Shown: one piece after another, positions 1,715-39,500 of the stretch
Layout: each line of letters starts with the position of its first letter
Position numbering within the stretch: the first letter of the stretch is position 1
Origin: Catajapyx aquilonaris
Lineage: Eukaryota
Reading direction: 5' to 3'
Assembly: GCA_000934665.2 (NCBI GenBank)
Contig: KZ538087.1
Span: 1-64,000, forward strand
Length of the DNA: 64,000 nucleotides
Made by a program: the position numbers and the translations under genes
The notes under the pieces: model-generated
The model's input: only the letters and a program-made list of their open reading frames with translations
What the model was told of the DNA's origin: nothing
The model's database searches: none

Positions 1715-2540
1715 CTCAGGTCTTGTAATAAATAAGATAGCTATTTTCCAGTATAGCCAGTTATCTGCGGCTCTTTTTTCTAACGCTATACGTGATTTCC
1801 GGCCCTCCCTCTTCCGGCGGCAATCTTTTCGTTTTGTTCTTTCTTTAGAAGACAAGAGTCGCCTATTTCCCACTCTCCATCTCCTCACGTCTTGGCCTGG
1901 CTGGACACTGGACTAGAGACGACTGTGGGGGAAAGGCGTACGGTAGTTGCCCCTTCATGTGTTGTTGAACGAGGCGTTTGCCCCTGTCCAGGGGTGGCGT
2001 GAGAGGGGAAGAAACTAGAATCGACTGGACTGAATCGACTGATACACAGACTGACTGGTAATGATAATCAGATGCTTGGAGAGGTGTATTCCAAATCAAA
2101 AGGTTCACTAGCATTAGCACGAGATCACATTCATAAGAGTGTCAATGTACAGAAGTTAAAGTTTTCTCGATGCTGGTCAAAGTTAGCATAGTATTTTTGG
2201 GGGGAATTGTCTTCTCCAGTTGACAGAATCTGTAAACGGAGCTGAAGCTAATGGTCTCATACTTCCTTATTGTTATTGTGATAGTTTATGCCAGCAAATA
2301 ATGGAAGAGGCCTCACTAATACACTCATTTTTGCATTGGAAAATTTTCCTTGTTAGGCTGCTGGCATAATGTAAAATCTGTGTAAAATATACCAATTCAG
2401 ATAAACGTCTAAAATTTAATTCTCTGCCGAACTCTCTCTAACACCAATTGTAACAAAAAACAGCTGGCAGCCTTCCAGGAAAAGCAAGAGACTGTTTTCC
2501 CTGTCAATGAACTTCAAAGAGATATCACAACTAAAATTAA

Positions 2541-2890
2541 TGGCCTTTTCCCAGTATGTTCTCATGTGTGCCTGTTTAACCTACACCCCACATTAAACCT
2601 TGATCCACAAAATGTGGGGAATATATGCTTTCATTACTGTCCGTAGTTTCATGAGAATTTTCTCAATTATTAAGCTTAATTTTTTTTTTCATGTAGTGTA
2701 TGATATTGGCTCGGCATATATGGAATTTCGCCTTTGAATGGTTTTTCTCCCATATGTATGTGCATGCGATTTCTCAATGTTCAGGCCTGTCTAAAAGGTT
2801 TCTTACAAACCACACAAGTGAATGGCTTATCTCCAGTTTGGAATTCTCCTTAGCATTACATATATGGGCAATTCGTAACCCCGTGTGCGT
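2541..2890 (-). pseudogene. Degenerate C2H2 (Kruppel-type) zinc-finger array relic
   Basis: Minus strand 2840-2720 translates [37 protein letters not shown]. Further linker relics near 2890 (HTGLRIAHIC) and 2570-2541 (frameshifted HMRT..GKRP). Contains an in-frame stop and frameshifts. Confidence 0.8.
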
Positions 2891-3060
2891 GTAGACCTAC
2901 CTGTCTGAACCACATATTATGCCAGTGCCATATAGCTTCAGAATGGCCATTGTCGCTGTCGCGAATAAAAAACACAACAACCAAACCATTAATCTATCTT
3001 TCCATCGTCAATATACCCTTTCCAGCTAGCAGTCCGGCATCAACTTTCGTGGTATACCAG

Positions 3061-3272
3061 CAGTGGCGGATCCAGAAATTTTTTCAGGGGGGTGGGTGGC
3101 ACAAGGGTATAGGTGGGGTGGGGGGGAGGGGTTATAAAGATCTGTGCAGACTGGTGTCTTTGGGCCCACATTTGTCGCTGTTAGTGGTGCATGCAGAAAT
3201 TTCTCTGAGGGAGGGGGGAAATTTTTCCAGCTTGTCACAANGGGGGGGGGGCACCCCCTGAATCAGCGCCTG
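3061..3272. mobile_element. hAT-like MITE with 8-bp TSD
   Basis: TATACCAG|CAGTGGCGGATCCAG ... CTGAATCAGCGCCTG|TATACCAG; G-rich interior. Confidence 0.85.
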
Positions 3273-5817
3273 TATACCAGACATACAGACGATACAGTAA
3301 TATTCCAGGGTCTTCTCCCGAGACCTAGGGGGCGGATTCTCGGGGACTTTACGGGAGGCCCGCAAGTCGCAAACGCCCGTAAACGTGACGTCACGCCCCG
3401 GCGGGAAGGAAAGGCCCGCAAAGATACGGGTGGGTGGCAGCACCTGTAAGTCGCCTGTCGCTCTCAAAAATGGCCCCTTCCCCGACAGCAGCTGTGTGTC
3501 CGTAAGGCGGGGATCGAATTATTTACGGATACCCAGGTCCTTTGATTGGGCTCACGGGACGTGCACATAAACGTAAGTATTTCGCCACTAGTGACGCCAC
3601 TACTAGGGTTGGATTCACAAATAACGGAAAGCACTTGACGGGACATCGTATTGTTGAGCCAGGGATGGGAAACCCGAGGCCGAATCTGATCGAAAAGCTG
3701 GTCAATGGGAAAACCTGTTTCATGTATGGATGCTTACAATGTACCACACACTGGTAATAGTTTGGTTCATGAGAGTTAGGAAGTGTTGAGAGTGATGAAA
3801 TGTGACGGCTGCCAGAAAATTGGGAGCTAATATTATCTATTGTTGTTATTATTTTGTTTGGATGCTGCTTAAAAGTAGCCTTATAACTAATGTACCATGA
3901 TAATTTTGTTCAATTTCAGGTTGTATGAATGTAATTATTGTAAAGCAAGGGAAATTAAAAATAAATTATTGTAACACATTTCAACATCTCATGCACTTTG
4001 AAACCGGGTGACTGAAGACCCATATACCACCCCACAAGGAAAGAACTGCACTTGCATCCTTTTGCTTCTGTGCATGAGATAGCTCCTCCCTACCTAAATC
4101 ATAGGGGCCTAATTAAGTAATTAATAGCGAAACCCGAATTCGTATGCAGGCACCTGGTACGATCAGTAGTAGTTACTTATTCTCGCTGTGATTTTCTCAA
4201 TAGCGTTTAATCCCGTCGCCGTCCATTGTACGGCGGTGGGAATGCACCCTTTTCCTCTGGGCCATTGGCTCCTGTCCTATTCCGGTGGGCGGAGCTCCAA
4301 GAACCCCCATATCTCCCCCCTACTTTCAATTCTTCCTTGTATGGACTTACGGGGTACCGTTGGTCCTGAAGGAAGTGTCCTCGGAAGTATTGTTGTTAAG
4401 GGACGCAAGAGGTAGAAAGGGACTTGTTGTGGCGGGTAGTGAGGTGACCTCCCCGAGAGAGGTTCCTGCGTGAGGCCACGCATAATCCGCCGACAAAGCA
4501 TTCCATGGACCATGGTTACCGAATACCGCTGCTGTAAATGGGACGCAACATTGAAGAGGCTTCATTGTTGTGGCAGGCCGTGGGTGTCACCTCCCTAGGA
4601 GGAACCCTACGTGTCCGGGCAGTATCCGCCAGCAGTTGGAGATAACAAGTAGAAGGCGTGTGCATCCAGAAGAGTGTCCACATCATCACAGTATCGTACA
4701 GGAATGAAAGACAAGGCCAGCTTTCACCTTCTCCTGACAACCCAGAGGAGTGCCATTAAACGACGACAGACGTGTCAATGTAATGAGTGAGCTGTGAAGA
4801 TCGTTAGAGGTCAAGAAGGTACCTTGCGACTGACGATGGGTTTTGTGTGCGAGAAAGTGTATTGTTATTTGAAGGGTCGATGTGTGTGTGATGCAGAGGA
4901 GAGAAGGTGAAAAGGAATGAGGGTATATATACTTTTGCATTTACTGTATTATGTTGAAATGGCATACCTGCTCTGTCATTGACTTCCTTCACTGCCACAC
5001 AAAGGGGGGGGGGGGGGGGGGTGNNNNNNNGGTGACCAGGCACCTCACCTAAATTAAAACCTCACAACCCTCTATTTCGACCACTCTGTGACAAGGAATA
5101 AGGTTTTTCTTGGAATCCCGAATGGCAACACCATTTATGCAAATGTCTGGTTTTGAGCGTGGTATTTAATGTTTAATCATTCACTTGTTTCCTGCATACC
5201 AAAAAGGCCTTTCCGGTTCTGACAACAATTGCCATATAAAGCGCAAGAATTATTAAGGTAATAAAAGAAATCTGAAGGTAGATACCATTTTACTCATGGT
5301 CCGATGGTACGGTACTGTTCAAAATTAGTAAAGGGCTGCCAGCTGTGTCGGAAGTAGTTGAACTTGATATTCCGGCGCGTGATTTCATATTCAAAAAAGG
5401 TGCCGACGCGACGTCCAGCCGTCTAATCCTCTGCTCTGCCCGATATTGTTGCGTATGTTACCATTGTTGTGATCAACAGACACGGACCATGTAAGAAGGG
5501 GTTCTTCCTATCCTATCTGACCACTTCCCCGCATCACACTCCGGTTCAATTTCCCATGATGCATAGTCTCCCTTACACCAGCTGAGAAGGGAGGGTCGAC
5601 GTGGAGAGAGAGAAGCGGACGAATCAGCGAGCAAGCAGGTTGGTCCCGGGCTGTGCTCCGGGACTTACGTCTACTACCAGTCGGACTACGACTTGCGACC
5701 ACGAGCAGCCTCTTACGTCTACTACCGGTCTGACCCTGACATCCCATTGCGAGCAGTCCACGAGTATCAACGATCAACTTACATGTCTGAACTCTGAAGA
5801 GTACTGACCCCCACCGA

Positions 5818-5998
5818 AGCAGGTTGGTGGAGGGGATAAGGCGTCCGACTGCTAATCGGGAGGTATTGGGTTCGAGTCCCGGGGCCGGCGATCCTGACTG
5901 TGGTTTTCTGTGGTTTCCCACGGTCTTCCCAGGAAAATTCCGGGGTCGCTTCCGTAAATAATAGGCCAAAGTCTTCCTTTCCTATCCTTGACCCATCC
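5818..5998 (+). mobile_element. tRNA-derived SINE (family 1)
   Basis: A box TGGTGGAGGGG (5825-5835), anticodon-like arm TCCGA-CTGCTAA-TCGGG and B box GGTTCGAGTCC (5869-5879). These are followed by a GGTTTTCTGTGGTTTCCC...CCAGGAAAATTCCGGG body resembling arthropod SINEs. The 3' end is approximate. Confidence 0.8.
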
Positions 5999-6774
5999 AT
6001 GGGGAGGTGCGGTGTCGGTGGGGTGTTTCTGCCCCGCACGGAGGAACTGCAACCTGACCCCCTGGGTGACTGCACACGACCCCCAACATTAAGACAACGC
6101 ACTTGCACAAGTGTCCCCTCCTCACAAATCCCTATCCTGATCCCTGCACCGCACAGGAGAGAAAAATGCGAAAGAAAATTCGTAAGAAAAAATGGTGGTA
6201 ATCTACCCCCCNNNNNCCCCCCCCCCCCCTAAAATGAGTTCGTTCCCTCCAATGGGGCAAAAAGAAAAGGAGTACCGCGATCGTCCTTCAGCAGTTGACA
6301 TCGTTCGCAGAAGAGTAACATTTCCTGTCCTTCTGCAGTTCATCTGTCCGTATGCAAAGAGTACCTATCCTGTCCTTTAGTATCAACGGTCCTGTTGCAC
6401 CTTAGTGCCAAGCTGACCTTTACCGAAGGACTAATCCGGTATGCCCAAATGATCCACTTGTCCTTGTGCATCAACAATCTGTACTTCGACGTGTACTACC
6501 CAATTGTCCTTGACCCTTGTCAAGATATCCAGAAGAAGAGGACCAGCCCGTCCTTCCTCCGACTGACAACAGTCCAGCAGAAGCGGACACTAAACCCCTG
6601 CAGTCAAGTAGCAGGACCTGCAGTCCAATCCTGCCGAGCAGACATTCACACGTACAGCCCACGACGTGTACAGTGCAGTCCAGCAGAGGCATCATCTGGC
6701 CGTACTGCCCACGACGCATCCATTCCAGTGGAAGACCAGGTAGAACCGTTTTTCCACTGACCAACCTGTACACC

Positions 6775-8254
6775 TGTCACGAGGTCAAATTCAAGAGGCC
6801 CCAAAAGCAGAGAGTGACGTACTAAGGTGCAATTTAAAGAGAGAATTTATTCTCAAAAATAAACAACTGTTCAGGAAAAGAAAGGACCAAGTCCGCAAAA
6901 ATTAAAGGTTCACAATAAATTGGGATGTGGATAATGGACGGCTAGGAAGGTCAGATTAACAATCATAACAATCCTGAACAAAATATCCAAATCATGTTTA
7001 CAACCAGAGTCATAACCAACACACTTGGCACTCATGGAAATAACACTCCACACTCACTTTCACTTTCTACGCCCGCTTCACTCTCCACTAGCCCGGAGCG
7101 ATAAAGAAGAGCAGGCCCAAAAAAAAAGGGTATGCACTGGCGTAACTAAGCAACACGCACCGACACACACATACGTTCTATAGAAGATCCAGGTCCGGAT
7201 CTCCAGAGTTGAACAAACACTCCGGTGAGATGACAAATCCTCGTTGGTGTCCTTGATAACGAGAGTCCAACTTCACCACTGTCGTTGAACACCGGCATCT
7301 ACAGCCCAGTGTCAAACAGTGCGACACTTCCCCAATAAAAAGGGGAAGGGAGGGAAGGCAAAGGAAACGACCGTGTACAATTTTACCACGGCCTCCAAAC
7401 CTTCAAACCACTGACAAGTAACGGGAACCCACCCGTACCACAGTAACTCCCCAGAATTACGTACAAGTACCTTTTACTCGTACAACCCAAAAGGGGGGAA
7501 AATAGCAAGTCACCCAGCGTACACAGAGCATACCAGCTCCGCTGAGGAGACGCCACATACTGACCACGCAGGGCCAGAAAAACTCTTCAAGAAAAAAAAA
7601 TCCTAGCGACTAAGCAATTCCATTTTACAAGCCGAGTCCGTGAGACAGGCCAGTCAAAAGTCACACGCGACAACACCCAAGTTATTCCTGCCCATCAGCA
7701 ACTTTCCTGCCCTCAGAGAAACGGTCCACGCGCAGTAATTGGACCAGAGTGTGATTGAATAAATAACTGGTCAAACAAGACAAGTGTGTCGACCTTGATA
7801 AAACCTTGCACCTTCTGGGTCAAGCATCCTTACAGACCACGCGACGGGTCTCCCTGCCAATGTACGTGATCTAGGTTGGCCAGACGTTCTTCTTTAAGAT
7901 GGACAGTCTATCTTTCGAGCACTCTGTCGTTCTTCCTTCTTCACCTAAAGAAGGACGCTCATTTGCCCCTTTTGGGTCCAGTCAATTTCCTTGACCTGTA
8001 CTAGAACATCGGAAAATTTGGGAGTTGAAGCCCACAATAACAAGCACCCCTGGAGACGGCTAATAAAGGATAGAAACACACACACGAAAAAAACTTACCT
8101 ACCTTCAATTCAATGCTCTTCACAGTGCCTTTGCAGTGAAACCCACAATACCTGTTACCTAAAAATGTTCCATTCAGAGAGATATATTGTAAAAGGGGTA
8201 ACAATTCATCCCATATTTCCAGCTCGTTCTAATTACATCCCTGGCGCAGTTACA
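6775..8254 (-). mobile_element. Possible solo LTR (Gypsy-like)
   Basis: Minus strand begins TGTAAC and ends CGTGACA, with AATAAA about 70 nt before the end and no ORF. No matching TSD or PBS seen. Confidence 0.3.
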
Positions 8255-9067
8255 GTGTAGAATGAAAAGGATTCGTTATTTTCAGTTCAGTATTTAAGGT
8301 AATTTCATTCTTGTCGACATGTTTTTGCAGAGTCACAAGGAGGGCAGTAAGACATGTGTCATATATGTTTTTGTTCTTGTTTTTGATGAAACACATAATA
8401 TTGGTGTTCACGCTCCCTGATCTGCTTGTATTCCACACATTGCAGTGCGTGAAAGTGTGGCACCAACCAGGTCATTTAGCATACCAGTATACTGCAATAA
8501 TTGGTGATAGGTTGAACCAACAAGATGTCTAGACACTCAACTGAAATTGGCATAAACGAGGAATGGTGAAAATTGTCACAATAAGGTGCGAATAGTCATG
8601 AGAACAGGATTATTTGGCCCTGATCTAGGCAAGTAAAGGTCAGAGAACTCGGCCAATCATCAATGACAAAGCAACCAAACTTGATTAAATGTACGAGTAT
8701 AATGCTACTGCATATTTGAATTTCAGTAAAGGTTTTCGGGTAATTGATGAATAGACAACACCTTATTGCCATATTCAGGTCCTTTGCATTTATATGTACT
8801 CACCAATCTGAATCTACATCAACGCACAGAGATGATGGACATGGATAATTATACTGTACAAATCTATTGGTACAGGCTCGGGTCCAGCAGGGCATGCAAG
8901 TTCAGGAAATATTGAGAGCTACTGATGGGAGAGAAATACTAACACAAAACGTAGTTTGTCAGCTATGTATTTTTTCGGTGTCAGAGTACAAAAGCACATG
9001 TACATATTAGGCAGGAGCATTTACTCCAGCAGGAGCTTTTACTCCAGCTCGAGCAATTATTCTAGCA

Positions 9068-10168
9068 TCATTCGGAAAAGAGCATAGGTCTCCCTTCAAG
9101 CCTATCATACCTCAGGAAGAAGTTTCTTTGAACTTCCTTCCAGCTCTTGCGATGAAAGACACAGTAGGTGCCCCTCTCATACTTAGGCGTCCTCTCAGTG
9201 GGTTCCACCCCTGGCAGACAGGTCATCCAAAACTTCTTTGTAGTGTGGTACCGCCAGCCTCGATCGTACAGCTCTGCAGCTGCCCCTAACTGCACGGTGT
9301 CTCCAGGGAAAAGATAAAAGAATGAGAACATCTGGTCGTCGTTGTAACGATCAAACCGAATGGGAGGGAGTCTGTGCCCGATCGTCGACTTGATGCCATA
9401 TGGTTTTGAACAGTCCCATTCGAAATACCGTGGTGGGGACTTGCGTCTTATTGCAAATAGCACCTCTACACTGCTGACCTTTACACTTGGTCCCTTGACA
9501 GCTGATGCTTCATCACCTTCCATGGTATTTGGAAGTGCTGGAAAGTCGTCCTCCTTCAGAATGGACTCAGATGATTCCATTACTGGCTGCTTCACATCCG
9601 CCTTCAGTTCGAGCTGCATAGCAGGAGGGGGGCTAGCTGAGGTCAAGTCCATGACACTTGCCACCGAAGAACCAAATGTAGGGGCCTCCACCTGCCCCAT
9701 GTACAGATCAGAGGCTGAACCTGTCAGCATGGACAACACATCTAGTGATGAGCCATCAACTCCAGAAGCAACACGATGCTCCACTCCTCCTGCCACAGCA
9801 TCTGCTGCTGTCATTGCTGCTGGACCGTTGAATGACAGCAGTTGTTGGGGCCCCTCAAGATGCATCATCCCCACTAGCCCCTGCTGGTGATCCTGGTCAG
9901 TAGAGTCATCAGGCCCCCGGCTCATGTCCTTTGCTTCTGGACCAGATCCATCTGCATACTGAGCCACACCAGAAGCAGGATTCTTGGGAAACATGTTGTG
10001 CTGGCTCAAGGTTCTCCAAATCCAGACAACAGCAACACCTCCAGGCACCACCCACCTGTTCCTCCAAAAGGTCTCCTCCAACTTACCAACTTCCAAACGT
10101 GACCCCACTTGGCCCTTGGTAGAAGCTGGGTCAGGCAGCAGCTGAAATGTCGGTAAAGAGCTCATCAT
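9068..10168 (-). CDS. CNOT2: Divergent CCR4-NOT subunit 2 (CNOT2/NOT2/Regena)-like protein, 366 aa from first ATG, single coding exon
   Basis: EDDFPALP motif and C-terminal NOT2/3/5 NOT-box (IRFDRYNDDQMFSFFYLFPGDTVQLGAAAELYDRGWRYH...ERGTYCVFHRKSWKEVQRNFFLRYDRLEGRP). The ORF track start at 10180 is TTG; first ATG is at 10168. Probably a paralog rather than the canonical ortholog. Confidence 0.9.
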   Translation of the reverse strand: MMSSLPTFQLLPDPASTKGQVGSRLEVGKLEETFWRNRWVVPGGVAVVWIWRTLSQHNMFPKNPASGVAQYADGSGPEAKDMSRGPDDSTDQDHQQGLVGMMHLEGPQQLLSFNGPAAMTAADAVAGGVEHRVASGVDGSSLDVLSMLTGSASDLYMGQVEAPTFGSSVASVMDLTSASPPPAMQLELKADVKQPVMESSESILKEDDFPALPNTMEGDEASAVKGPSVKVSSVEVLFAIRRKSPPRYFEWDCSKPYGIKSTIGHRLPPIRFDRYNDDQMFSFFYLFPGDTVQLGAAAELYDRGWRYHTTKKFWMTCLPGVEPTERTPKYERGTYCVFHRKSWKEVQRNFFLRYDRLEGRPMLFSE

Positions 10169-10195
10169 GTTCGGTTTCAAATCTGGTATCTCTCA

Positions 10196-10808
10196 CTGCA
10201 TGAAAGAATTGGTAAGTCAGGAGGAATACATGGAATATCTACTAGTGCAGTGCTCGCCCTCCTGCAGCAAGAAATGATTGACTGTCATATTGTTATTGCA
10301 TGTTCGTGTATGTAACACCACCTGCAATTGAACCATTGTTGAAAGCAATAATGCCAAGCGAGGTAATGAAACATTGTCAACAATGAAGTGGTACAATATA
10401 TTCAATGCAGCAAGTGGGAATTAAGTACGTGCAGATATTATTCACCACTATTGGCTTGCCTTGGATAAGAGAGCAGGGGTGCCAACGTAATTTTCTCAAG
10501 TTGTCGGGCCTTCAAATATACAAGTATGTAAAGTGGTGCCATATTCATCAATACATATCAGTACTGCAAATCTCGACTGCTCACTTTTATTACAATTACA
10601 GTTGAATCCGGATATAACGGACTTCAAGGGACTGCCTATAAGGTCTGCTATAGCCGATGACACAAACCATATAATTATTATTTAATTATGTCGTCGGGAT
10701 TGGCCTTTCGAGTGTGTTATAACCGAGTCTGTTATATCCGGATTCAACTGTACTATTGTAATTCCAACATAGGCTAATAACCATCACTATAAGATACCGG
10801 TACCTCAC
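10196..10808 (-). other. Predicted 5'-UTR intron of the CNOT2-like gene
   Basis: Donor AAAG|GTGAGG at 10808, branch-like CCTGAC and acceptor TTCTTTCATGCAG| at 10196, 27 nt upstream of the ATG. Confidence 0.55.
10599..10750. mobile_element. pogo/Tc1-type MITE (paralogous copy of 419-562)
   Basis: TA|CAGTTGAATCCGGATATAACGGACT ... AGTCTGTTATATCCGGATTCAACTG|TA. Confidence 0.8.
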
Positions 10809-11023
10809 CTTTTCAAATAAGTGGAATAAGTGTTATGATCAGGTCTCCTTGCACAGTCGAAACTGGGCTCGACTCTTGGTCCAGCTCTGACTCCGTGTGA
10901 GATGACGATGGAAGGGCAGGATGCTGTGACGATGCCCCGAACGAAGGTCAAAGGTCAACCCAGAGAAGGACGAGGAAAAATAGCGTCCCAACCAAGACAA
11001 TATTGGCAAACGGACAAAAGGAG

Positions 11024-11045
11024 AAAATGGCCGTTGGTGACGTCA
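11024..11045 (-). promoter_or_regulatory. Putative core promoter of the CNOT2-like gene (CRE plus YY1-like motif)
   Basis: Minus strand TGACGTCA-CCAAC-GGCCATTTT about 220 nt upstream of the predicted splice donor; ETS-like TTCCGG motifs near 11310-11330. Confidence 0.45.
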
Positions 11046-12082
11046 CATCTTGTCGGTTAGTCAGGCTTGGAAACAAGGTCTTTATTCACAACAGGGCTTG
11101 TAATTAGGAAAAACATTTTCCGTGTGTCCAAATAATACAAAAAGCGATTGTAGAATAAAAATTGTAGAATTAAAATCAATAGCGTGATTTTATTATCCAC
11201 AAGTATACATTAGTAACTCAGGCAGAACTCAGGTCTTGTAATAAATAAGATAGCTATTTTCCCGTATAGCCAGTTATCTGCGGCTCTTTTTCCTAACGCT
11301 ATACGTGATTTCCGGCCCTCCCTCTTCCGGCGGCAATCTTTTCTTTTGTTCTTTCTTTAGAAGACAAGAGTCGTCTCTTTTTCGAGGATTCCCACTCTCC
11401 ATCTCCTCACGTCTTGGCCTGGACACTGGACTAGAGACGACTGTGGGGGAAAGGCGTACGGTAGTTGCCCCTTCATGTGCTGTTGAACGAGGCGTGTGCC
11501 CCTGTCCAGTGGTGGCGTGAGAGGGCAAGAAACTAGAATCAACTGGACTAAATCGACTGATACACAGACTGACTGGTAATGATAATCAGAAGCTTGGAGA
11601 GGTGTATTCCAAATCAAAAGGTTCACTAGCATTAGCACGAGATCACATTCATAAGAGTGTTAATGAACGGCAGAAGTTAAAATTTTGTGGATGCTTGGCA
11701 AGGTTACAATAGTATTTGGGGGAGGGGGGGAGGGGGAGGGGAAGGGGGGGGGAGGGAATTGTCTTCTCTAGTGGGCAGAATCTGTAAAAGGAGCAGAAGC
11801 TATTGGTCTGATACTTCCTTATTGTTATTGTGATAGTATAAGCCAGCAAATAATGGAAAAGGCCTCATTAATGGACTCATTTTTGCATTGGAAAATTTTC
11901 CTTGTTAGGCTGCTGGCATAATGTAAAATCTGTGTAAAATATACCAATTCAGATAAACATCTAAAATTTAATTCTCTGCCGAACTCTTACATGACATTTT
12001 ATCTTTTATTATGATTTTTTATTTTTTACTGATCATTGAACATTGTATTACTGACATATGTGCACGTGTTGCCATTTTTACA

Positions 12083-12550
12083 GATACTTGGACACCCACC
12101 AATTGGAACAATAAGCATCTGGCAGACTGGATGGAGAAGTAAGAGATTACCTTCCCTGAGAAGGAACTTGAAGAACCTCGTTGCACTGGCCATGATCCAC
12201 AAGGAGTCGTACATGGTGTATGCAGTGGCTAAGTGTCTGAGGAATGATCTCCATGAAGTAGTTCGACTTTCACTCTACTGTAATGTACTACTGCCACTTC
12301 CACCAGATCGAGTGGGAGTGGTCAAATGCCGAGAAGTACTCTCAAGACCATATGGATAAAAAGGTTTGGGGGAGGCAGTTTGGAGGGTGTGAGCTGAAGG
12401 TTTGACTAGAGCAACTTTCGTGGTGTGGTCCAACTATGTTTGACATGTGCCTTAGCTCTTGGACAAATGCTGGGATCAGTGGGATGCAGGAGTTTCTATA
12501 GACACCAGAGTCAAGCATTTGATTATTCACCTTGGTGAGGATGACTGTGA
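12083..12550 (+). pseudogene. Decayed IS630/Tc1-family (DDE_3-type) transposase, C-terminal part
   Basis: Across frameshifts: PTNWNNKHLADWMEK*EITFP / LVALAMIHKESYMVYAVAKCLRNDLHEVVRLSLY / YCHFHQIEWEWSNAEKY ... LIIHLGEDD. This matches the HEVLRLPPYHCELNPIELIW pattern. Confidence 0.65.
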
Positions 12551-13983
12551 TGGAAAGGAGCGGACTCAGATGATTATTAGTGCAGAAGACGAGGCAGGCA
12601 AGTGGAATATGACCATCTCACCATCTGTCAGATGAAGCCAGTGGTGAAGTTGGGATGGGTGACTCTGTGGAAACAGCTGATGTGGATATATTATACTTGA
12701 TGACCGTGAGTTGGACATAAAATTATTTAATTTTGCCACTAATACGTATACATGTCTGATCCTACACTTACCGTATTAATGTATTGTGGAATACTTTTGG
12801 TGCATATACACAGTATTGTGAATCGCATATTTCCTTTCAAATTAGAATGGAATCTGGGTCGCTCCCAATCAGAGTGCAATTGAGAGCTTGGATTTATTAT
12901 TCCATTCGGCCTAATATTAGTTTCTAATATTTTAATAGCCACTCAAAGTAACCTTCAAGAGTAACTGATTAAAGCAGGTTAGTGCCGAAAGATAGCTAAG
13001 AACTCCGTACATTCAACTGGATCACCTGTATACTCAGCAGTCAGCAGTGATAACTCTATTTATTTCAGTTGGAAAGTACGGTAGGCCTATTAGATAATAT
13101 TATTTTTATTTAGGTCAGCCTATCCCAACCTTTTTTTTCGGGTGTATCACTTCTCGTGATCGAATAAGTGTACCACCAATACCATGGAAAATAATGTTGT
13201 AAAGACGGAATCGTATTGTGAAACACAATGCAGCTCCCGACGGAAAAGTTGAGCAGCGCTCTATCCGCTTTCTGCCCGCTTTTAGGGGTTGGTTCAAGAC
13301 TTTGAATGGATAGAAAACCTTGACATTTGATAGTGGCCTTTATCCACCCTTCTCGTGTACTAATGTACAACATCTCGCGTGCCACCGCACCGGTTGAAAG
13401 CTTTAGGCCTATGGTCGATTTTATTTAAAGTGATTGTCACATGTAATTTTTCGAAATGGATAGGAAGTTGCCGTACTTATTCATTAGGAGGCTTGGAACA
13501 AGGGTGTTCAAGGTTAGCGATGGAGAAGGCTACTAACGGTTTTTTTAAATACTTAAGAGGAGAAACTAAACCCATGAGATATAATAACTGGTTTATAGGT
13601 GTGATATTGGGTACTGTACTGCAGGGTAACCTCCATGAGTGCCTCCCCCACCTAGAGAGGGTATTGTCTCTCCGACATATTGGACCTAAATCAGATTGGA
13701 TCTGCATGCAGTGAAAAAATGTCCTTGGAAAAAAAAATTGACGCTTGCCAATTTCCTATCCTCCAGCATGCAATCTAGATCCAATATGGACGCCCCATAA
13801 GGACTACGTGGAGCCAATACCCTGGTTAGGGTGGGGGAGGCAACCATGTAGGGGACCCTGCTGTACAGTAGCGTCTTGCTACCTACAGTATATCTCCTGG
13901 CGTTACTGTAGGAACTTTTGATCTTTCCATGACCAGTCGTCGCCAGCATTTTGATCATAATATTACATTCAATACTAGTTTAC

Positions 13984-14104
13984 TCAAGGGGGTAACAATA
14001 CTTGGTAGAACTGGTGCACAGGGTTCCTGTGGAACAAGCCTGGAACCGGGTGGAACCAGCTTGGAACTGGTGTACACTTCTTTGGGGAGTTGTTACCCCC
14101 TTGA
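13984..14104. mobile_element. Small MITE-like element with perfect 15-bp TIRs
   Basis: TCAAGGGGGTAACAA ... TTGTTACCCCCTTGA with internal TGGAAC repeats; no clear TSD. Confidence 0.6.
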
Positions 14105-17100
14105 TCTGATGGATCTGAGACATCTTTATGAAAAAAATTGTTACTATCATCAATGAGTTAACGAAGAAACGCAGAGTAAATCAGAGAGAAAATTACAACT
14201 GAAGCTGCTGTATACAGTACGGTATATTAGGTTCAAAAAGGCATAATAAATCCTTCATTATGAAGACTTTATATGGGCAAAGGTTGCTTAGCTTAATTAT
14301 CAGCTGTGAAAATAGATAGAGGCACTTCACGTCCCTCCATGATGCACGATCTACGTCATAAATTGCGAAATTTCTTGATAACGACGTCGTACATTATGAT
14401 AATTGGCCCTGGATGGATTGGAATCGCAAAAGATGAAGTGGGGCTCCAAATATGTAAGTTACTCTCTGGGCCTAAAAAGTTTGGATGGATGGGTATAATT
14501 TCCATGGAAAGGGAAGTGTCAAGCCAGGACGGTCCGAGTTCAATTCGTGTGCCCTTTCGATATTAAAATGGTGTGAATAAATCAGGCCACAATCTCTCGG
14601 GTCACAAGTACGCCATTATTCACCGGTATATGACTGCAGGAAGATTCGAACCCTCCGATCGTAATAATAATAGGACTACGTCCCCCTGGCAAGTGGCTGC
14701 AAAGTTGTTTGTGAATCAGGAACAGATCGATTCTTGATATTTTTTCTGGGGGACCTACATAAGTGATGGGGGAACGCTAAAAACGTAATACAGGAAATGG
14801 AGGAACATTTATCAAGATTTCCGTTTTCTTTTCCTTTTTTGCTAGGTCCTAATCCACTTTGTTATGACACTTGGCTCCAAATAGTTTCGCTTCGGGATCA
14901 AAGCAAGCATCATTTGATCATTAATGGAAATTACATTGATGAAAGTCACTCTTTATATCTGAAACTAGGATATTCAAGGCACAATTGGACGATAAATCAA
15001 TGCAGCAAAGCAATGATTAGAAAATCAGTAACAAATATGTTTGCAGCAAGGTGAAGTTTGACAACTTCATTCCACTGCACTGGCCTATTTGGCATTGTTG
15101 TAGAGCGTGAGTCTGTTCCTGGCTGCTGGGATACAGTGTGGATCAGATGGGGCTTGGTAGGGTTAATCCAGTCACTGCTCTGAGGTACTCCTTCCTCCGG
15201 CTTAATAGAGGCTGTGCAAAGGACTTGGTATTTAACTTAACGTCAAAGTTTCTGTCGGAGAATACCTTCGAATAACTTCCCCCGCCACCGCCACTTCCCT
15301 CACTTCGTTAACTTTTCTCTCTATTAATTTTTTTGACCTGCAATAGTTGTGCACGATGCACAGTATTTAAGCATGGAAAGAAGCTCTAAGTGAAAAAATA
15401 ATTAAATTCTAGATGCCCTTGGCTTCTATTTTCAATGCGTTTTTTTCCCAGAATGGCACATAAAATGATGAATTATAATTTGTGTGTAACCACTTTTGGT
15501 ATATTCTTTATTCAGACCTTGTTTGGCATGATACAAGGTAAGTATACATGTTAATTTTCATCTGGAACCATACCATAGTTAAAAAGTTATTGAGGAATGT
15601 TTGGGTTTCCATTCGAGAGAATCACCCTGTACATAGCACATATTTAAATACATAAAAATATTTAATTGAAATTTCGGATAGGTGAATGAAGTGAATGTTG
15701 TTTCATGCAGAAAAGTGCACAAATAAATGCATCTGAGTGAATAATTATTATTCAAATGGAGTATTATAGCTACAAAATTATAATAACACATTATTTTCAA
15801 TGTTACACATGTGCACAAATACTTCCACACATGTGGGCAAATGGCATAATTTTTCAACTTTGAATGTACCTAATTGTCGTTCACAAGTATCGGGGTCACT
15901 GAATCAATATTTCTACATAATTGAATGGGAATTAAATAACATTTCTGATTCACACTGAATTCCTAACCTCGGAGATTTTTTGTTGAATCGTAATCATTAA
16001 TAAGGTAATATTTAACGACGTAATTTAAATTTTTTATGGCATAACTAACCTCCAGCATTCAGAAACAAAGGAGTCAATATATGACGCTAATGTCCCTAGA
16101 TAATACCATTCAACCTTGCGAAAATGATGTAACTAATAGGTTGAAACCATCACGCATAGTGATAAATTTTGTTAATTGACGTACAATACTTTTCCACATA
16201 AAATTACTATTCCGGTCTAAAAATTATGAAGCTAAATCAGTAATGTTTCCATTTCTAATTAGCACTAAAAATAGTAAAAGCCTACATTTAGATTTCAAGT
16301 ATCAAACTTCATTCACACCGGTGTTATTGCCGTAATTACATCCCTACTAAATTAGCTGTGATATTCCAAAGCATTTCACTAGGCATATACTAAGGCCGTA
16401 AACAAGATTTCATTTGGGGGGGGGGACTTTTTCTGTTAGCTCTCTTCCCCTATACAACCCTCCCCCTCGCTTAGTTTAAAATGCCATGAATAAGGTAGGC
16501 TAATATCGGTGGGTTTGGGGCTCTCCCTCATACTTTTCTTCTGCAATTAACAGCACCAATATGAATTTTGGAACAGAGTTGGAGAAGTTTGGGAATTACG
16601 TCCTCATATGTTAATAATAGCTTATTGTAGAGTTTCTTGCTATAGCCAAGAGGTTAGCGACTGAGGACTCTCATATGACCATGTTTCGGCGAGTCAGTTT
16701 TCCTTTTCTGACCTTAGCAGGCCAACTGATATGCTACATAAATATCGACATGGAACTTGATTGCCCTATATATATATATGCTTTCCACTTTTTCATGAGA
16801 AACCTGGACGAATTGTCAGCACAAAAAGCGACTTAAGAGGCCAGTTTCGACCGATGTCAATATAACGTGAGCCATATATAGAGTATGGGGAACTAAGCTG
16901 GGAGCTTTTTTGTGTATTCTCACCACGGCTTCGTTCTGCAGCTTTGCCATCGAGAAAGATTTCCCCTACTTTTCCTATATTTGAAGGGGAGTCGCTCTTT
17001 TCAAAAACGGTTTGCGCTGCCTGAAAGTGGGGGTAGGGGAATCCACATGCTAGGGAATACCATAGTCAGATTTGGTGCTTTACATGTGTTTACAATATTT

Positions 17101-32346: not shown

Positions 32347-34167
32347 CTATCGCACAAATTCCATTGGCTGCTCTACCGGTAAATAAGTTTCGACCAGAAA
32401 AGCAAAGAATGCCGAAGCACTTCCTACCAGCAAAATGTAAAAGGCCCCTTCAAATGTCTTGAGCGAGAATCGCAGCAGTGTTTCCTCGCTGCCGCTTTTG
32501 ACTTGCCTGGCAACCCTCCAAGTACTAATGTAAGTGGATAGCCTGTCGGTCTTTTGCCCCAACCCAATGGCGTTGTACATTTGAATCCAGCGGTTGAAGT
32601 TGTCCGTGTAGAGGCTGCCTTTAGGGAATATCATCGAGGAGAACAAGGACACAAAGTTGTCGTCGGCAATTCGCACTTTGTATGCACCATACTCATCTAT
32701 GAAATGGTTCGCCTCATTGCGCAGAGCAGTCTCTGTGGTGATGCAAGCGTTGTCACCCTCGAAAAGCCGCTCGATGCAATCGCGTCTGCTGCCGCCCCGC
32801 GACCCTTTGGACAGGAAGTACGACAGCGACGAATCGTTTAATTTCACGAACGTGTTGAGAAATATGTAGTCGTCCTGGGAGAAGACGGCCCGGAAGGATG
32901 AGGTCTTCAGGTCCTGGATAGAATCCGGGAGAGTTTCCATCGGCGGAGAGGTCAGGAACGAGTATAGTTTGGACTTATACCCGGTGCCCACTACCATCCC
33001 GAAAAACACCCAGAAGATAAACAGAATCCGCGAAGACGACTTCGAAGACTGCATCGGTGGCGGTTGGTCCACCAGCACCTGTCCGAAATGGGCTAGGGAT
33101 ATACATAAGGACGAACCGCTAGCCAGAAGCACGTGCAACATGCTGGCACATATGAGGGCTGACAAAAAGAGAATCCAGGGCAGCAGTTGGTATGGCAGAA
33201 AGAAGAGCAGTGGCGTCACTTGGCGTCGCGGTTGACGTGTGGCGAAAGTCAGGCGTCCAAACTTGTGGCACGTAATGTAGTCCATTACGGGGTAATACTG
33301 CGGGGACAAGTTGAGCATCATGTAGAACGGCATGTGCCCCGATGTCAGCCGGCGCACTGCCTGCATGGCAACGGTGTAGTTGTACATGTCCTGCTCCGTG
33401 ATTTTCCAGGTGAAATTCAAGGCCTGTTGCGCAAAGCAGAGGGGTTGAATGTCGTGGTGCGCCCAGTAGTTGCAATGCGATTTATTAGGACCCCATTCTA
33501 GGACACTTTCTAGTAGCTTTCCATGGAAGTTGCTGGCAGTGTCTTGAAACAGGGTGGTTGAATCGGGCTGTTCGATCGTGGGATTACCGTCGTCGCAATA
33601 AAGACATACCGAGTGCAGCTGGAATCCCTGCTGTGTCGTGATTGCTGCTTTCATCTTGATTCGTGAAGCTGGCGGTTTTAACAAATAGTCTGTGGTTGCA
33701 CTATCGCGTATCCATGTCAGGTGGAAATGTTTGGTGGGGCTCCCGACAGCTGCCGCCGCTGTCGCTTCAAAGTTCTGGCTGCAACTGACAATGAATTGCA
33801 TCGAACATGTTGATGTCCACTGATATTTCAACTGATCGCGGTTGAGATCACTGGGTGAGTTACACTGCCAGTTGCTGCGTTTCCGGGAAGCTGTCAGTAT
33901 TATTGGTCTCCCACTGCCTTCCGTGCGGCCCAATAATTGTTGCACAGGTAGTGGTATATCGGCAGCATCATGAGTCAGCACCAGTGGGCAGTATATGGGA
34001 ATGTTACTTACGTTTAACAACAGTTTGTCCACAAATAGAGACACTAGTGAAGCCTCACTATCCAAGTTTGATAGGTATGTAACGACTGAAAGTAAGTTGA
34101 AGATGCTCATCATGGACGGACTGCGGGGACAAAGTGGGTCGTCGTAAATAGTCGACAACGACGTCAT
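32347..34167 (-). CDS. Divergent ionotropic receptor (IR; iGluR-related chemoreceptor), 606 aa, intronless
   Basis: Pre-M1/M1 LTFATRQP...FFLPYQLLPWILF, M3 SSRILFIFWVFFGMVVGTGYKSKLYSFLTSP followed by PDSIQDL, S2 FPKGSLYTDNFNRWI, M4 SLKTFEGAFYILLVG...FLVE. The true start may be Met19/20, which precedes a hydrophobic signal-like stretch. Confidence 0.93.
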   Translation of the reverse strand: MTSLSTIYDDPLCPRSPSMMSIFNLLSVVTYLSNLDSEASLVSLFVDKLLLNVSNIPIYCPLVLTHDAADIPLPVQQLLGRTEGSGRPIILTASRKRSNWQCNSPSDLNRDQLKYQWTSTCSMQFIVSCSQNFEATAAAAVGSPTKHFHLTWIRDSATTDYLLKPPASRIKMKAAITTQQGFQLHSVCLYCDDGNPTIEQPDSTTLFQDTASNFHGKLLESVLEWGPNKSHCNYWAHHDIQPLCFAQQALNFTWKITEQDMYNYTVAMQAVRRLTSGHMPFYMMLNLSPQYYPVMDYITCHKFGRLTFATRQPRRQVTPLLFFLPYQLLPWILFLSALICASMLHVLLASGSSLCISLAHFGQVLVDQPPPMQSSKSSSRILFIFWVFFGMVVGTGYKSKLYSFLTSPPMETLPDSIQDLKTSSFRAVFSQDDYIFLNTFVKLNDSSLSYFLSKGSRGGSRRDCIERLFEGDNACITTETALRNEANHFIDEYGAYKVRIADDNFVSLFSSMIFPKGSLYTDNFNRWIQMYNAIGLGQKTDRLSTYISTWRVARQVKSGSEETLLRFSLKTFEGAFYILLVGSASAFFAFLVETYLPVEQPMEFVR

Positions 34168-34327
34168 GTGTCACCTAGGCCTACTTTTACTGCGCGTTGA
34201 GTCCGGTTCTAAGCAGGTCGATTGTTTTATTATTTATTTAAGCCTTCATTTGTCATTATGCCCTTCAGAGTTGATTCTCCAGAACTTTGGTGCAACTAAA
34301 CCGTAAATAATTCGACACCACCGTGAG

Positions 34328-36549: not shown

Positions 36550-39500
36550 TATGTGTTCTGTTGCTCAGATGTTCCACAATGATCCAATCGGATAGTTCTC
36601 CAGGTCTAACGTCCTTCGACGATAAATCCATTCTTTGTCGGGCTTCTTGCATCCATCATGACAAATCCACGTCACGTATCGTGCCATGAACTGCTAGATG
36701 TGCTGAGCATGCCGAAGAAGTCCTATAGCCACGAATAGAAGTCATCAGAGAGTCTGCAAAAAAAAAAAGGCAGGGAAGACTAGTATGTAATTAAAAGCCG
36801 GTAAAGATGGGCGAGCTTAGAATGAGATTAGTATCAGATTGCGACTTGTTGTAGAGTCAGCAGAGATTACGTCTGTTCCTGTTGCGCGTGTAATTAGGAC
36901 AAGGACGGAAGGGTTTAGTACGGCAACTTGATTTGCTCCCCATACCACACACTAAAGTTCTGCCAGAGAAGTTGCTGGGGAGTAGAGGCGGAAAAGCACT
37001 TTTCATATTGGGGAGGGGAGTGGGAGGGTAAAGCGGGGGAGGGAATTGCGCAGGAAGTTTCTGATTGCAAGCCGAGCAAGAGAGGAAGAAAATAATGTCG
37101 TCGTTGCCGCGTCTCATCTTCAATGCATCACCGCAGCTTCTCTGGCGGTATTGTCAACCGCCTCCTCCTATTGTTTCCTACTCTATCTTTTCATTATTAC
37201 CCCCGGAACTTTGCAGCCGGAGTCTCATATTTCTGATGCTACGCCCCTTCGAGCGGTTGTTGTCGGAGGGAGGGGGGGGAGGGACTCCCGGATATTCAGG
37301 CATCGGGTTAGTCCTCCCCCACATCTCCTCCACCCCCCTTCATCATGGCTCGTTTTGTAGCTTTGCTGCCTGGAAAACCCGGAATCGGAATGTCTGCATC
37401 AATTGCCTGTTAACACGCCATTGCTTTTAACATTCACATTGTCAACTAGCACGGTTTGTGCTGCCGAACAATAAGCCGCATGCTATGCAAACTGGATTTT
37501 TACCCGGATGAATAAAATTGTTCCGTGCCCCGGATCACTTGGGCATGCAAGTAACATTGTGTGTAACCTTTTGTTTTGTCTCAAAGGCATGTAATGAGGG
37601 AGTATATGTGGCCCCCACCAGGGTTAGCTCTCTCTTTTCTATAAGCCTTACAGGGGGGGGGGGGGGGGGGNGGGGGGGAGGCACATCATGAACATGGGGG
37701 TGTTGTGAAAAGAATAAAAAAAACTTTGAATATTCCGTGTGCCCTTTATGTATAGGCGTAGGGCTTGAATTGATTCGGCCAGTTTTCCCCATTTAGCCAC
37801 ATTCATAGAGCAAGTTGGAAAAAAAAAGTGTTAGAGCTAGGGCTGGAAATGGATCTGGTGCGTGCTGCGTGGAGCGTGAAACGCAAACGCACGAATTGGA
37901 AGGGTCCACGTGACTTGGGCATCAGTCGCCGATTCCAGACCAATTTTCTGTCGCCTCATATGTCTAAACCGCACACTTCTTTGTAATCCATGTGGGAACG
38001 GGGTGTCCAATTCCGGCCGGCTTTTCCAACCCGAGTTTCAAATCCCATCGTGGCGTGTATTCCATCGTAATTAGCCCTGGCCGCCGCTTTGAATTGTAGC
38101 CAGTTTTCAGGAAAGGTCCTGGGCTCGTTGTATTTACTTTGAACGTGACAAATTGCAGGCTGGGAAAAAGAAATAACTGTAAAGGCGGAGTCGACGACCT
38201 TTTTATCAAGCGAATTAAATTTTATAATGAATCTACTCTTCTTGGCCGCTCTTTATTCCTCCACCACCCAAAGCACGCATGAGCTCCAAGCTCCAGGAGA
38301 AACATGATTCGGCCCTGAAAAATTCAGGATCCAGTCAAAATACACCTTACCTTCTTTTGTCGTCGCCAGTCCTTGTTGCATAATTCATATCTGCCCTTGC
38401 TCTACAGTAGAATTGGTCCTGCGTATAATAATTTCAGATGCGGTAATGGTGGACACATTGACTCCCGGAAGGAACCTTAAAAAAAAGGAACGTCCAGTTT
38501 TGGTCCCACATATACACTGTATGGGAACCTTCACTTAACCTGTAAGCTCGTGTCCATTCCATAATTTGCAGTGTAATTTTTTTCCGGGTATAGGGGGAGG
38601 GGGGGTGCGCAGCCATTTCAGCAAAGTGCATTTTACACTCGGCCAGAGTTACCCGGATTCATCCGGAGGCTATGCCGAGAGCTTTTCGGCCGGCTGACAC
38701 GCAGGTAATTTTTCATGGAATCTCACGAATTTGAGACTAAAAGCAAAAACGGGTGTCCCTCGGTCTCTGCCTCCGACTTTACCGAATATTTCATCAGCAA
38801 TGGGATTTCCTGCTGTTGGAGAAGAAGGGGCGGGCTGGGTGGGGATGGAGTTGGCAAAGTGAAGCAGTCATTTCCGTCTTAAGGGAAGAAGTTTTTTTTC
38901 TTCTTCTTCTTCTCTCTTCCCGCTTCTTGCCACTCATCGATTACAACTCTAGGGAAGGGAGGAAAATCAATTGGCTCTCTCTTTTTTTCTACATTTACGA
39001 TGCATTTCAGGGGGAGTGCCTACGGCAATGAGCCCATGCCGAGTGATGTAAACAGGGATGTAATCCACACAGTCATTTTGGGCCGGAGTGGATTATGCGG
39101 ATTCAAACGAGCTGTTGAAACGGATCATTCAATTTGTTTCAACATACCCGAGCTGGCCTGTACAGCAATACCGCCCGGATATATAACCCAGCTTGGTGAC
39201 AGTTGCCAGAGCCCATGGAGCAAAGAAGTTCCCGTCAGAAGACAAACACCAATATTATGAGCCTTCCCTGCAGCCTATTTGGCCAACTTTTGTGTGGCTC
39301 TGGAAATGCCTTTTGTTTCTCAGCAAACACTAGCGCTCCCGACAAATCTCCTCTGAAGGAAGACATGTGAGAGATATACTCTGGCTCGTATATAGCCCGC
39401 GATAAGGGGCATCGCCTTCCAGCTATATACCAACAACTCCTCCAGGATGTGGCTGGCGATGTTAACCAGCCAGGCACATTTCCGTCTTCCTTGTAATGCT

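Follow-up and report, generated by a model that had tools for sequence, protein, structure and literature searches.

A NOT2-like open reading frame without the NOT1-anchor region in Catajapyx aquilonaris, a candidate fast-evolving paralog of a CCR4-NOT core subunit

The integrity of the CCR4-NOT complex depends centrally on the anchor that fastens NOT2 to NOT1. According to the structural account given in PMC4032980, this long NOT2 anchor zigzags over the HEAT repeats of NOT1, and the connectors wrap the NOT-box of the partner protein and extend the NOT2-NOT3 interface. In the binding assays described by Bawankar et al. (2013; PMC3594282), Drosophila NOT2 402-585 associated with NOT1-C and NOT3-C as full-length NOT2 did, the shorter fragment 436-585 did not bind NOT1-C and its NOT3 binding was only residual, and the N-terminal region was active in tethering assays with no detectable binding to core subunits. 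Here we describe a NOT2-like open reading frame (ORF) of Catajapyx aquilonaris, located at positions 9068..10168 on the minus strand of contig KZ538087.1 (NCBI GenBank assembly GCA_000934665.2), in which the NOT1-anchor region (NAR) is missing. The analysis covered the first 64,000 nucleotides of this contig, hereafter called the window.

Like the described NOT2 proteins (CNOT2, Not2 or Regena; 4C0D, 5FU6, 4BY6), the ORF has a NOT2-type NOT-box, a disordered N-terminal region with an FPALP motif and a segment of connector length. Unlike them, it has no NAR, the VPxEY residues of its connector are lost, its box is 46% identical to the family consensus compared with a median of 72%, and it forms a single uninterrupted frame on a long branch. 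When the Drosophila fragments are mapped onto the ORF via a 572-amino-acid Drosophila Rga relative, allowing a numbering offset of 0-13, fragment 436-585 corresponds approximately to what the ORF retains C-terminally, i.e., a connector and a NOT-box with no upstream anchor. The two differ in that the former is a laboratory fragment without the N-terminal region, part of which the ORF keeps. A further point of comparison is Zeus, the Drosophila retrogene of Caf40/CNOT9, which is likewise a fast-diverging duplicate of a highly conserved CCR4-NOT core subunit. As described in PMC8774992, however, Zeus derives from another parent subunit and has documented male-reproductive expression and a knockout phenotype, whereas the Catajapyx ORF is known from sequence alone. 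For CNOT2 itself, the table of a 2025 review lists one gene in each of five model species, and its discussion of paralogs concerns other subunits only (PMC12746107); the literature searches made here listed no NOT2 paralog without a NAR. A duplicated CCR4-NOT subunit that diverges fast is known, and the new element is the loss of the anchor in a copy of NOT2.

The explanation that we favour, with moderate confidence, is that the ORF represents a lineage-specific, fast-evolving paralog of NOT2, most likely retroposed, which is kept as a protein-coding gene, has lost the NAR and has a degenerate connector. It would retain the disordered N-terminal region with FPALP and a NOT-box that is predicted to be well folded.

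Architecture of the NOT2-like gene

Read from stop to stop, the NOT2-like frame spans 374 codons (10192..9071), and only one open stretch of the window is longer. When the window was shuffled 40 times, the longest run of codons without a stop was 165 on average and at most 209. The ORF is genuine, and its length far exceeds what chance would give. A first reading of the DNA, made from the sequence only (the sequence-only reading), had described an open 366-residue ORF with FPALP and a full NOT-box, and this description is borne out, the box running to approximately residue 363. The parts of the gene are as follows:

9068..10168, minus strand: whole ORF of the NOT2-like gene, 366 codons and a TGA stop codon
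9080..9367, minus strand: NOT-box domain, residues 268-363 (Pfam, PDB sequence search, AlphaFold2, Foldseek)
9368..9439, minus strand: connector-like segment SPPRYFEWDCSKPYGIKSTIGHRL, residues 244-267, right in place and length, weakly conserved, VPxEY lost
9440..9529, minus strand: 30-residue linker, residues 214-243, in the place of about 110-150 residues of canonical NOT2, the NAR among them
9530..9553, minus strand: EDDFPALP, residues 206-213, the conserved second FPALP motif of NOT2 (alignment and profile)
9584-9598, minus strand: DVKQP remnant, compare GMVKQP (6-sequence alignment)
9665-9688, minus strand: EAPTFGSS remnant, compare D/EFPxLG, a degenerate first motif (6-sequence alignment)
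9545..9994, minus strand: disordered N-terminal region, residues 59-208, with remnants collinear with NOT2; the disorder is predicted
9995..10168, minus strand: first 58 codons, tryptophan-rich, without NOT2 similarity and of uncertain coding status

The NOT-box is of the NOT2 type and not of the NOT3 type. The Pfam family PF04153 (NOT2_3_5_C) matches residues 253-357 with an E-value of 1.2e-23 (84 bits, cut-off 27), and a sequence search of the PDB returned the human CNOT2 chain 4c0d_B at 3.2e-27 (residues 250-363), followed by yeast Not2 (2.8e-13) and CNOT3 (8.4e-8). An AlphaFold2 model built on a 72-sequence alignment reaches a predicted local distance difference test score (pLDDT) of 96-98 over residues 271-360, with helices (277-286 and 291-302) followed by strands (306-308, 313-317, 330-339 and 344-353). 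Residues N-terminal to the box are modeled with low confidence (pLDDT 50-57 in the linker and 33-45 over the first 58 codons), as would be expected for a disordered NOT2 tail. A Foldseek search with the predicted model again placed CNOT2 of the human NOT module (4c0d_B) first at 1.3e-13, then yeast Not2 and then CNOT3, and 27 of 30 feature-based Atlas matches fall within PF04153 clusters, the three shown being CNOT2 or 'regulator of gene activity'. The dimerising helices of the box (DDQMFSFFY, QLGAAAELYDRGWRYH) are conserved.

It is between FPALP and the connector that the ORF departs from canonical NOT2. The sequence-only reading had estimated about 30 residues at this point and suggested that the NAR was absent; exactly 30 residues were counted, and the alignments to NOT2 relatives as well as two kinds of profile uphold the absence. 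In alignments of 6 and of 72 sequences, just the linker stands opposite the NAR block (GIQTxPDGxVTNIP..DQFGMxGLLTFIRAAExDPxLVxLALGxDLTTLGLNLNSxENLYxxFxxPW). A full NOT2 profile of 476 positions, made from 45 canonical NOT2 proteins, was searched against the entire window translated in all six frames. It matches the ORF with its positions 159-198 (the FPALP region, domain E-value 0.012) and 326-434 (8e-44), leaving positions 199-325 unmatched and about 33 ORF residues between the two matched blocks. A NAR-only profile of 73 positions finds the NAR (E<1e-5) in 117 of the 125 relatives with room for it, counted as those with at least 150 residues ahead of WRYH, and, with every filter disabled, reports nothing for the ORF at a threshold as permissive as E<=1000. 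The spacing from FPALP to WRYH tells the same story: at 97 it is the shortest among 103 proteins carrying both D/EFPxL and WRYH (median 207), the next being a tick gene model at 110, followed by values of 139 and up. By these sequence comparisons, approximately 110-125 residues are judged to be lost, the whole NAR among them. The linker sequence VKVSSVEVLF may be a relic of LNLNSxENLY, although this is an alignment reading with no statistical match.

No other open stretch of the window matches the full NOT2 profile better than E 6, so no NAR-coding exon lies elsewhere in the window; and because the same frame runs without a break through FPALP, linker and NOT-box, there is no place between them for a spliced-in exon. 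A candidate NAR relic at 39069-39296 on the plus strand, suggested by one tblastn query (E 0.002), was gone in a second run (E<=0.1) and unmatched by the 45-sequence profile (E<=50), and was rejected as a chance match, as were weak tblastn matches at 38333-38386, 61684-61743 and 12283-12396.

Two alternative explanations of the missing region have to be weighed here. In the first, a collapsed or chimeric contig would have dropped the NAR-coding part, and the 10 short runs of N that the window holds, together with a high-copy repeat nearby, give this idea some substance. We regard such an artefact as extremely improbable. Four DNA runs of one sample contain the stretch, and single contigs from three of them are identical to the window over 9255-9611, a segment that spans the junction from FPALP to the NOT-box; these three runs may be the assembly's own data, and the identity is therefore not independent support. 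In addition, the deletion is in frame, and the sequence on either side of it is highly diverged from canonical NOT2, unlike that of a collapsed canonical gene. In the second alternative, the ORF would be the organism's sole NOT2, tied to NOT1 by a lineage-specific sequence that is no longer recognisable. The yeast Not2 anchor does differ in sequence from the animal NAR, and the ORF joins no supported group in a tree of the family (see below). Against this, nearly all relatives that have room for a NAR carry one, among them named proteins of insects, a nematode and a cnidarian. The neighbouring receptor-like gene (see below) points to an arthropod, and all the arthropod NOT2 proteins compared have the NAR. 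Moreover, the ORF offers 30 residues, compared with an FPALP-to-WRYH spacing of at least 139 in every NAR-bearing protein, and a branch five times the median is unexpected for an essential, universal subunit. We thus consider a sole NOT2 very unlikely.

The connector-like segment proposed in the sequence-only reading is in the right place and of the right length, but its sequence is weak. Only 6 of 24 positions are identical to the human segment with which it had been compared, and near-invariant residues of VPxEY are replaced (V253C, P254S and E256P). The Pfam match to the ORF, beginning at residue 253, starts at profile position 22, compared with position 3 in two divergent relatives that bear a NAR and positions 16-21 in a family of NAR-less NOT-box proteins discussed below.

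Further upstream, the DVKQP...EDDFPALP portion resembles the GMVKQP form of named insect and tick NOT2 proteins, and the residues F, P, A, L and P are invariant in the 6-sequence alignment with the ORF. NOT2 proteins match 9485-9595 by tblastn, the best E-value being 1.2e-5 (P0010, a damselfly CNOT2), and the first residue of the 374-codon stretch that is matched by the full-length NOT2 profile is residue 191. The true start may be M59 (ATG at 9992-9994) instead of the ATG at 10168. By eye, splice-acceptor-like sites can be seen directly upstream of the ORF (around 10196-10205) and at around 10141-10159, past the ATG. An in-frame TGA, also seen by eye, lies directly upstream of the ORF and follows closely on the pyrimidine-rich sequence '...ttctttcatgcag', an arrangement that suggests an intron in the 5' untranslated region. 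An intron within the 5' part of the ORF itself was considered and rejected, as the GGTAAGT-like donor around 10086 has no frame-keeping acceptor (candidate introns of 86, 73 and 41 nt).

Relatives, origin and maintenance

A word-indexed search of 5.8 billion proteins gave seven matches, all canonical NOT2 and at most 43% identical over a third of the query, and an exhaustive search of 1.84 billion representatives gave 966 matches at E<=1e-3, none of them below 1e-30; neither search returned an ortholog. Among the best 150 of the 966 matches, identities range from 31 to 51%, and all but one are confined to the NOT-box, the exception being the tick protein P0015, which also aligns from just before FPALP. 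In the 118 columns of connector plus box, the ORF has 46% identity to the family consensus and a best pairwise identity of 47%; for 70 relatives, identity to the consensus is 42-92% (median 72%). In a quickly built maximum-likelihood tree (132 rows), no supported group takes in the ORF. Its best named matches come from a sea anemone, a whipworm, a damselfly, a tick, a weevil and Drosophila, and this spread over a cnidarian, a nematode and insects carries no taxonomic signal. On such comparisons, the ORF is an orphan on a long branch.

Three other NOT2 records are short or diverged, and none of them groups with the ORF in the tree. The tick model P0015 (201 amino acids) runs from KRGIQTSKD straight into DYHVPSEY without a NAR, is otherwise near-canonical, and is probably an exon-skipped or incomplete gene model. 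The argonaut protein P0156 (380 amino acids) sits on a very long branch and shares LPP and ELYDRGWRYH with the ORF; its match to the NAR profile is weak and non-significant (E 0.41), and remnants of the NAR are recognisable. The weevil protein P0041 (374 amino acids) has an unrelated acidic N-terminus and an intact NAR.

Birth by retroposition appears most likely, because an uninterrupted ORF covers motifs that are spread along NOT2, and because of the long branch. The same origin had been proposed in the sequence-only reading and is plausible: the NOT2-homologous part is uninterrupted, but neither a poly(A) remnant nor a convincing target-site duplication was found. The flanks share a single direct repeat, an exact 11-mer (8767 and 10537), and about 0.9 such pairs are expected by chance in 2.7 kb; being at chance level and lying in a repeat, this pair was rejected as a target-site duplication. 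The absence of both marks is what is expected of an old insertion.

The favoured reading also requires that the copy is maintained. Its most serious competitor, which we nevertheless hold to be unlikely, is a processed pseudogene or dying duplicate whose frame is still open by chance, the NAR deletion and the substitutions being decay and no protein being made. To weigh the two, the ORF was mutated at random with a 1:1 ratio of transitions to transversions and with substitutions only (4000 runs per level). The 366 codons stayed free of stops in 13.6% of runs at 0.05 changes per site, 1.9% at 0.1, 0.5% at 0.15, 0.125% at 0.2 and none at 0.3 or more. The simulated box was still 72% identical to its start at 0.15 changes per site and 65% identical at 0.2, compared with the actual 46% to the consensus. 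At the divergence observed, neutral substitution leaves the frame stop-free in at most about 0.1-0.5% of simulations, with insertions and deletions not even included, and an open frame is unlikely under neutral decay. The substitutions also tend to avoid conserved columns. The ORF keeps the consensus residue in 22 of 28 columns that are at least 90% conserved, 21 of 37 at 70-90%, 7 of 27 at 50-70% and 4 of 26 below. Taken together, the consensus is kept at 43 of the 65 columns conserved to at least 70%, against 36.8 expected under a uniform-loss model (P about 0.075), and at 11 of 53 variable columns; the ratios of retention to expectation are 0.77 and 0.42, respectively. This pattern has the same shape in other divergent members of the family. 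Note also that the deletion is in frame and that the NOT-box is predicted with very high confidence, neither of which fits decay well.

The CpG content of the locus offers a further, indirect clue. In genomes with mosaic gene-body methylation, CpG troughs mark germline-methylated, usually transcribed units. The observed/expected ratio of CpG is 0.36 in the ORF and 0.74 in the window, which puts the ORF at the 1.4th percentile of 629 overlapping 1.1-kb windows and within the deepest CpG trough (approximately 8000-12500, observed/expected 0.26-0.45). This fits a germline-methylated transcribed unit, although the low CpG of the ORF may merely have been inherited from a parent mRNA. For the germline role suggested in the sequence-only reading, the local trough is a weak indirect hint. 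The trough also covers 11400-12200, a stretch without recognisable coding content. The ratio of 0.74 for the window as a whole amounts to a moderate depletion of CpG and appears unlike the values typical of vertebrate DNA.

Several observations weigh against a maintained paralog of this kind. The end branch of the ORF measures 1.1 in the 132-row tree, compared with a median of 0.2, and 6 of the 28 near-invariant positions are changed (V253C, P254S, E256P, L280M, R317C and D339H); like the low identity of the box to the consensus and an internal deletion that takes out an essential region, these are features that a pseudogene would show. The lack of an ortholog in either protein library also agrees with a pseudogene. 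Both differences between contigs and window inside the ORF are nonsynonymous, at 9631 (P180S; one of three DNA runs keeps the window base) and at 9756 (D138G); they are too few to weigh, yet unlike what strong constraint predicts. The first 58 codons, with their odd tryptophan-rich sequence, are un-protein-like, and the hallmarks of a retrocopy were not found, the 3' flank having no A-tract. The two tests described above have limits of their own, since the neutral simulation presumes a consensus-like parent, when the parent may itself have been divergent, and the conservation-pattern test, which presumes a consensus-like ancestor, is only a trend. Finally, binding of the product to NOT3 is doubtful by analogy with the Drosophila fragments (see below). 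On the whole, the indirect evidence leans towards a maintained gene.

Flanking sequence and other features of the window

Upstream of the gene lies one further element:

10417..10818, strand not assigned: high-copy repeat, 250-650 bp upstream of the ATG of the ORF

The summed contig depth over this repeat is 2,000-15,000, compared with about 25 in unique flanking contigs, and it has many joints and loose ends. It is probably outside the gene, but it limits the location of a promoter or 5' exon. A fifth sequencing run (X5) contains next to none of the stretch, and its few matches lie mostly in this repeat. Inside and beside the ORF, the summed contig depth is 97-175 in the bins 8809-9009, 9211-9411, 9613-9813 and 10015-10215, compared with 23-35 in neighbouring bins. 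The extra depth could stem from further similar copies, from alleles or from the summing of contig depths. A deeper variant contig carries a net deletion of 6 nt at 10072-10080, a sign that the genome may contain similar sequence at another place. In the 3' flank, an 18-nt unit is duplicated in tandem (94% identical) at 9011-9046, 22 nt past the stop codon of the ORF.

The only other recognisable gene in the window is a divergent single-ORF gene of 607 codons resembling ionotropic glutamate receptors, at 32347-34170 on the minus strand (Lig_chan, E 3.8e-10; GluA2 only 6e-4). It has no match in the word-indexed protein search. The Atlas clusters closest to it (score 0.97-0.98) all have Arthropoda as their commonest group, and one is named after ionotropic receptor 75a; this makes an arthropod origin of the window probable. 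Its local CpG observed/expected ratio of 0.92 suggests an unmethylated, tissue-specific gene. Pfam searches of 115 further open stretches of the window returned nothing but Lig_chan and one sub-threshold match to MIEAP (mitochondria-eating protein) at 48751-49095 on the minus strand (E 0.007, 16.8 bits, cut-off 27), which may be an exon or chance. Rfam had no match in the window.

Pairing partners and possible mode of action

If the favoured reading of a maintained paralog is correct, the missing anchor implies that the protein could not fasten itself to the C-terminal domain of NOT1 as NOT2 does. Given its conserved dimerising helices, it may have kept the ability to pair with NOT3 or with another NOT-box protein, and in that case it would compete for NOT3 or function off the complex. 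Binding to NOT3 had been considered possible in the sequence-only reading from the connector and the box; the conserved helices agree with this, whereas the degenerate connector and the residual NOT3 binding of Drosophila NOT2 436-585 in the assays of PMC3594282 do not. The options include a weak competitor for NOT3, an off-complex adaptor working through the NOT-box and the FPALP-bearing tail, and a neofunctionalised duplicate like Zeus. A specific NOT3-decoy mechanism is, on present sequence comparisons, a tentative proposal that we hold to be rather unlikely, and more doubtful than the existence of the paralog itself.

A different outcome would be a variant subunit of the NOT module that does enter CCR4-NOT, pairing with NOT3 and riding on the NOT3 anchor, so that an alternative and perhaps tissue-specific complex, and no decoy, would result. 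According to the structural description in PMC4032980, NOT3 is itself attached by a short anchor to HEAT repeats 1-5 of NOT1, and the review cited above emphasises that several CCR4-NOT complexes coexist as a result of paralogs and isoforms (PMC12746107); the well-conserved dimerising helices would suit such a partner. However, the Drosophila 436-585 fragment failed to co-precipitate NOT1-C and bound NOT3 residually, and earlier studies, as stated in PMC3594282, indicate that the NOT1-NOT3 interaction is mediated by NOT2. With a degenerate connector in addition, we judge a variant subunit decidedly unlikely.

Anchor-less NOT-box proteins are found elsewhere. A NAR-less NOT-box family is represented by P0099, P0134, P0155, P0118, P0146, P0139 and P0145, one of which comes from an Acartia copepod transcriptome and one of which is a cluster of 51 members. 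Its motifs are STLDPNxRPFTP, RTLIEVP and PLLPTPxNFPPFGP, its box reads LLFERGWRYHK...WKRIPGWFRL, and it has no FPALP. The ORF shares with this family a NOT-box without a NAR, a late start of the Pfam match and RGWRYH in place of the RDWRYH of canonical NOT2. In contrast, the seven rows of the family form a separate clade with 100% support in the Shimodaira-Hasegawa-like approximate likelihood-ratio test (SH-aLRT), the ORF lies outside it, and the N-terminal motifs of the family are absent from the ORF. An apparent likeness of STLDPNxRPFTP to PAM2, a PABP-binding motif, was dropped, as Pfam gave no PAM2 match. A single search of the literature yielded no description of this family. Being a well-supported clade, it indicates that anchor-less NOT-box proteins can be conserved. 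One might go further and propose that NOT-box proteins without the ability to bind the NOT1 scaffold have arisen repeatedly in arthropods and are retained by selection. The ORF and the copepod-type family would then be independent cases, natural separation-of-function forms of NOT2 that titrate NOT3 or serve as off-complex adaptors through the NOT-box and the FPALP-bearing tail, possibly in the germline. This broader idea is speculative, and we consider it unlikely as it stands.

Were the ORF a dying copy, the finding would be an ordinary one. If it is maintained, it would be a natural separation-of-function allele, showing how a NOT-box and an N-terminal tail act away from NOT1, and NOT2 would become the second core subunit of CCR4-NOT, after Zeus/Caf40, with a fast-evolving duplicate.

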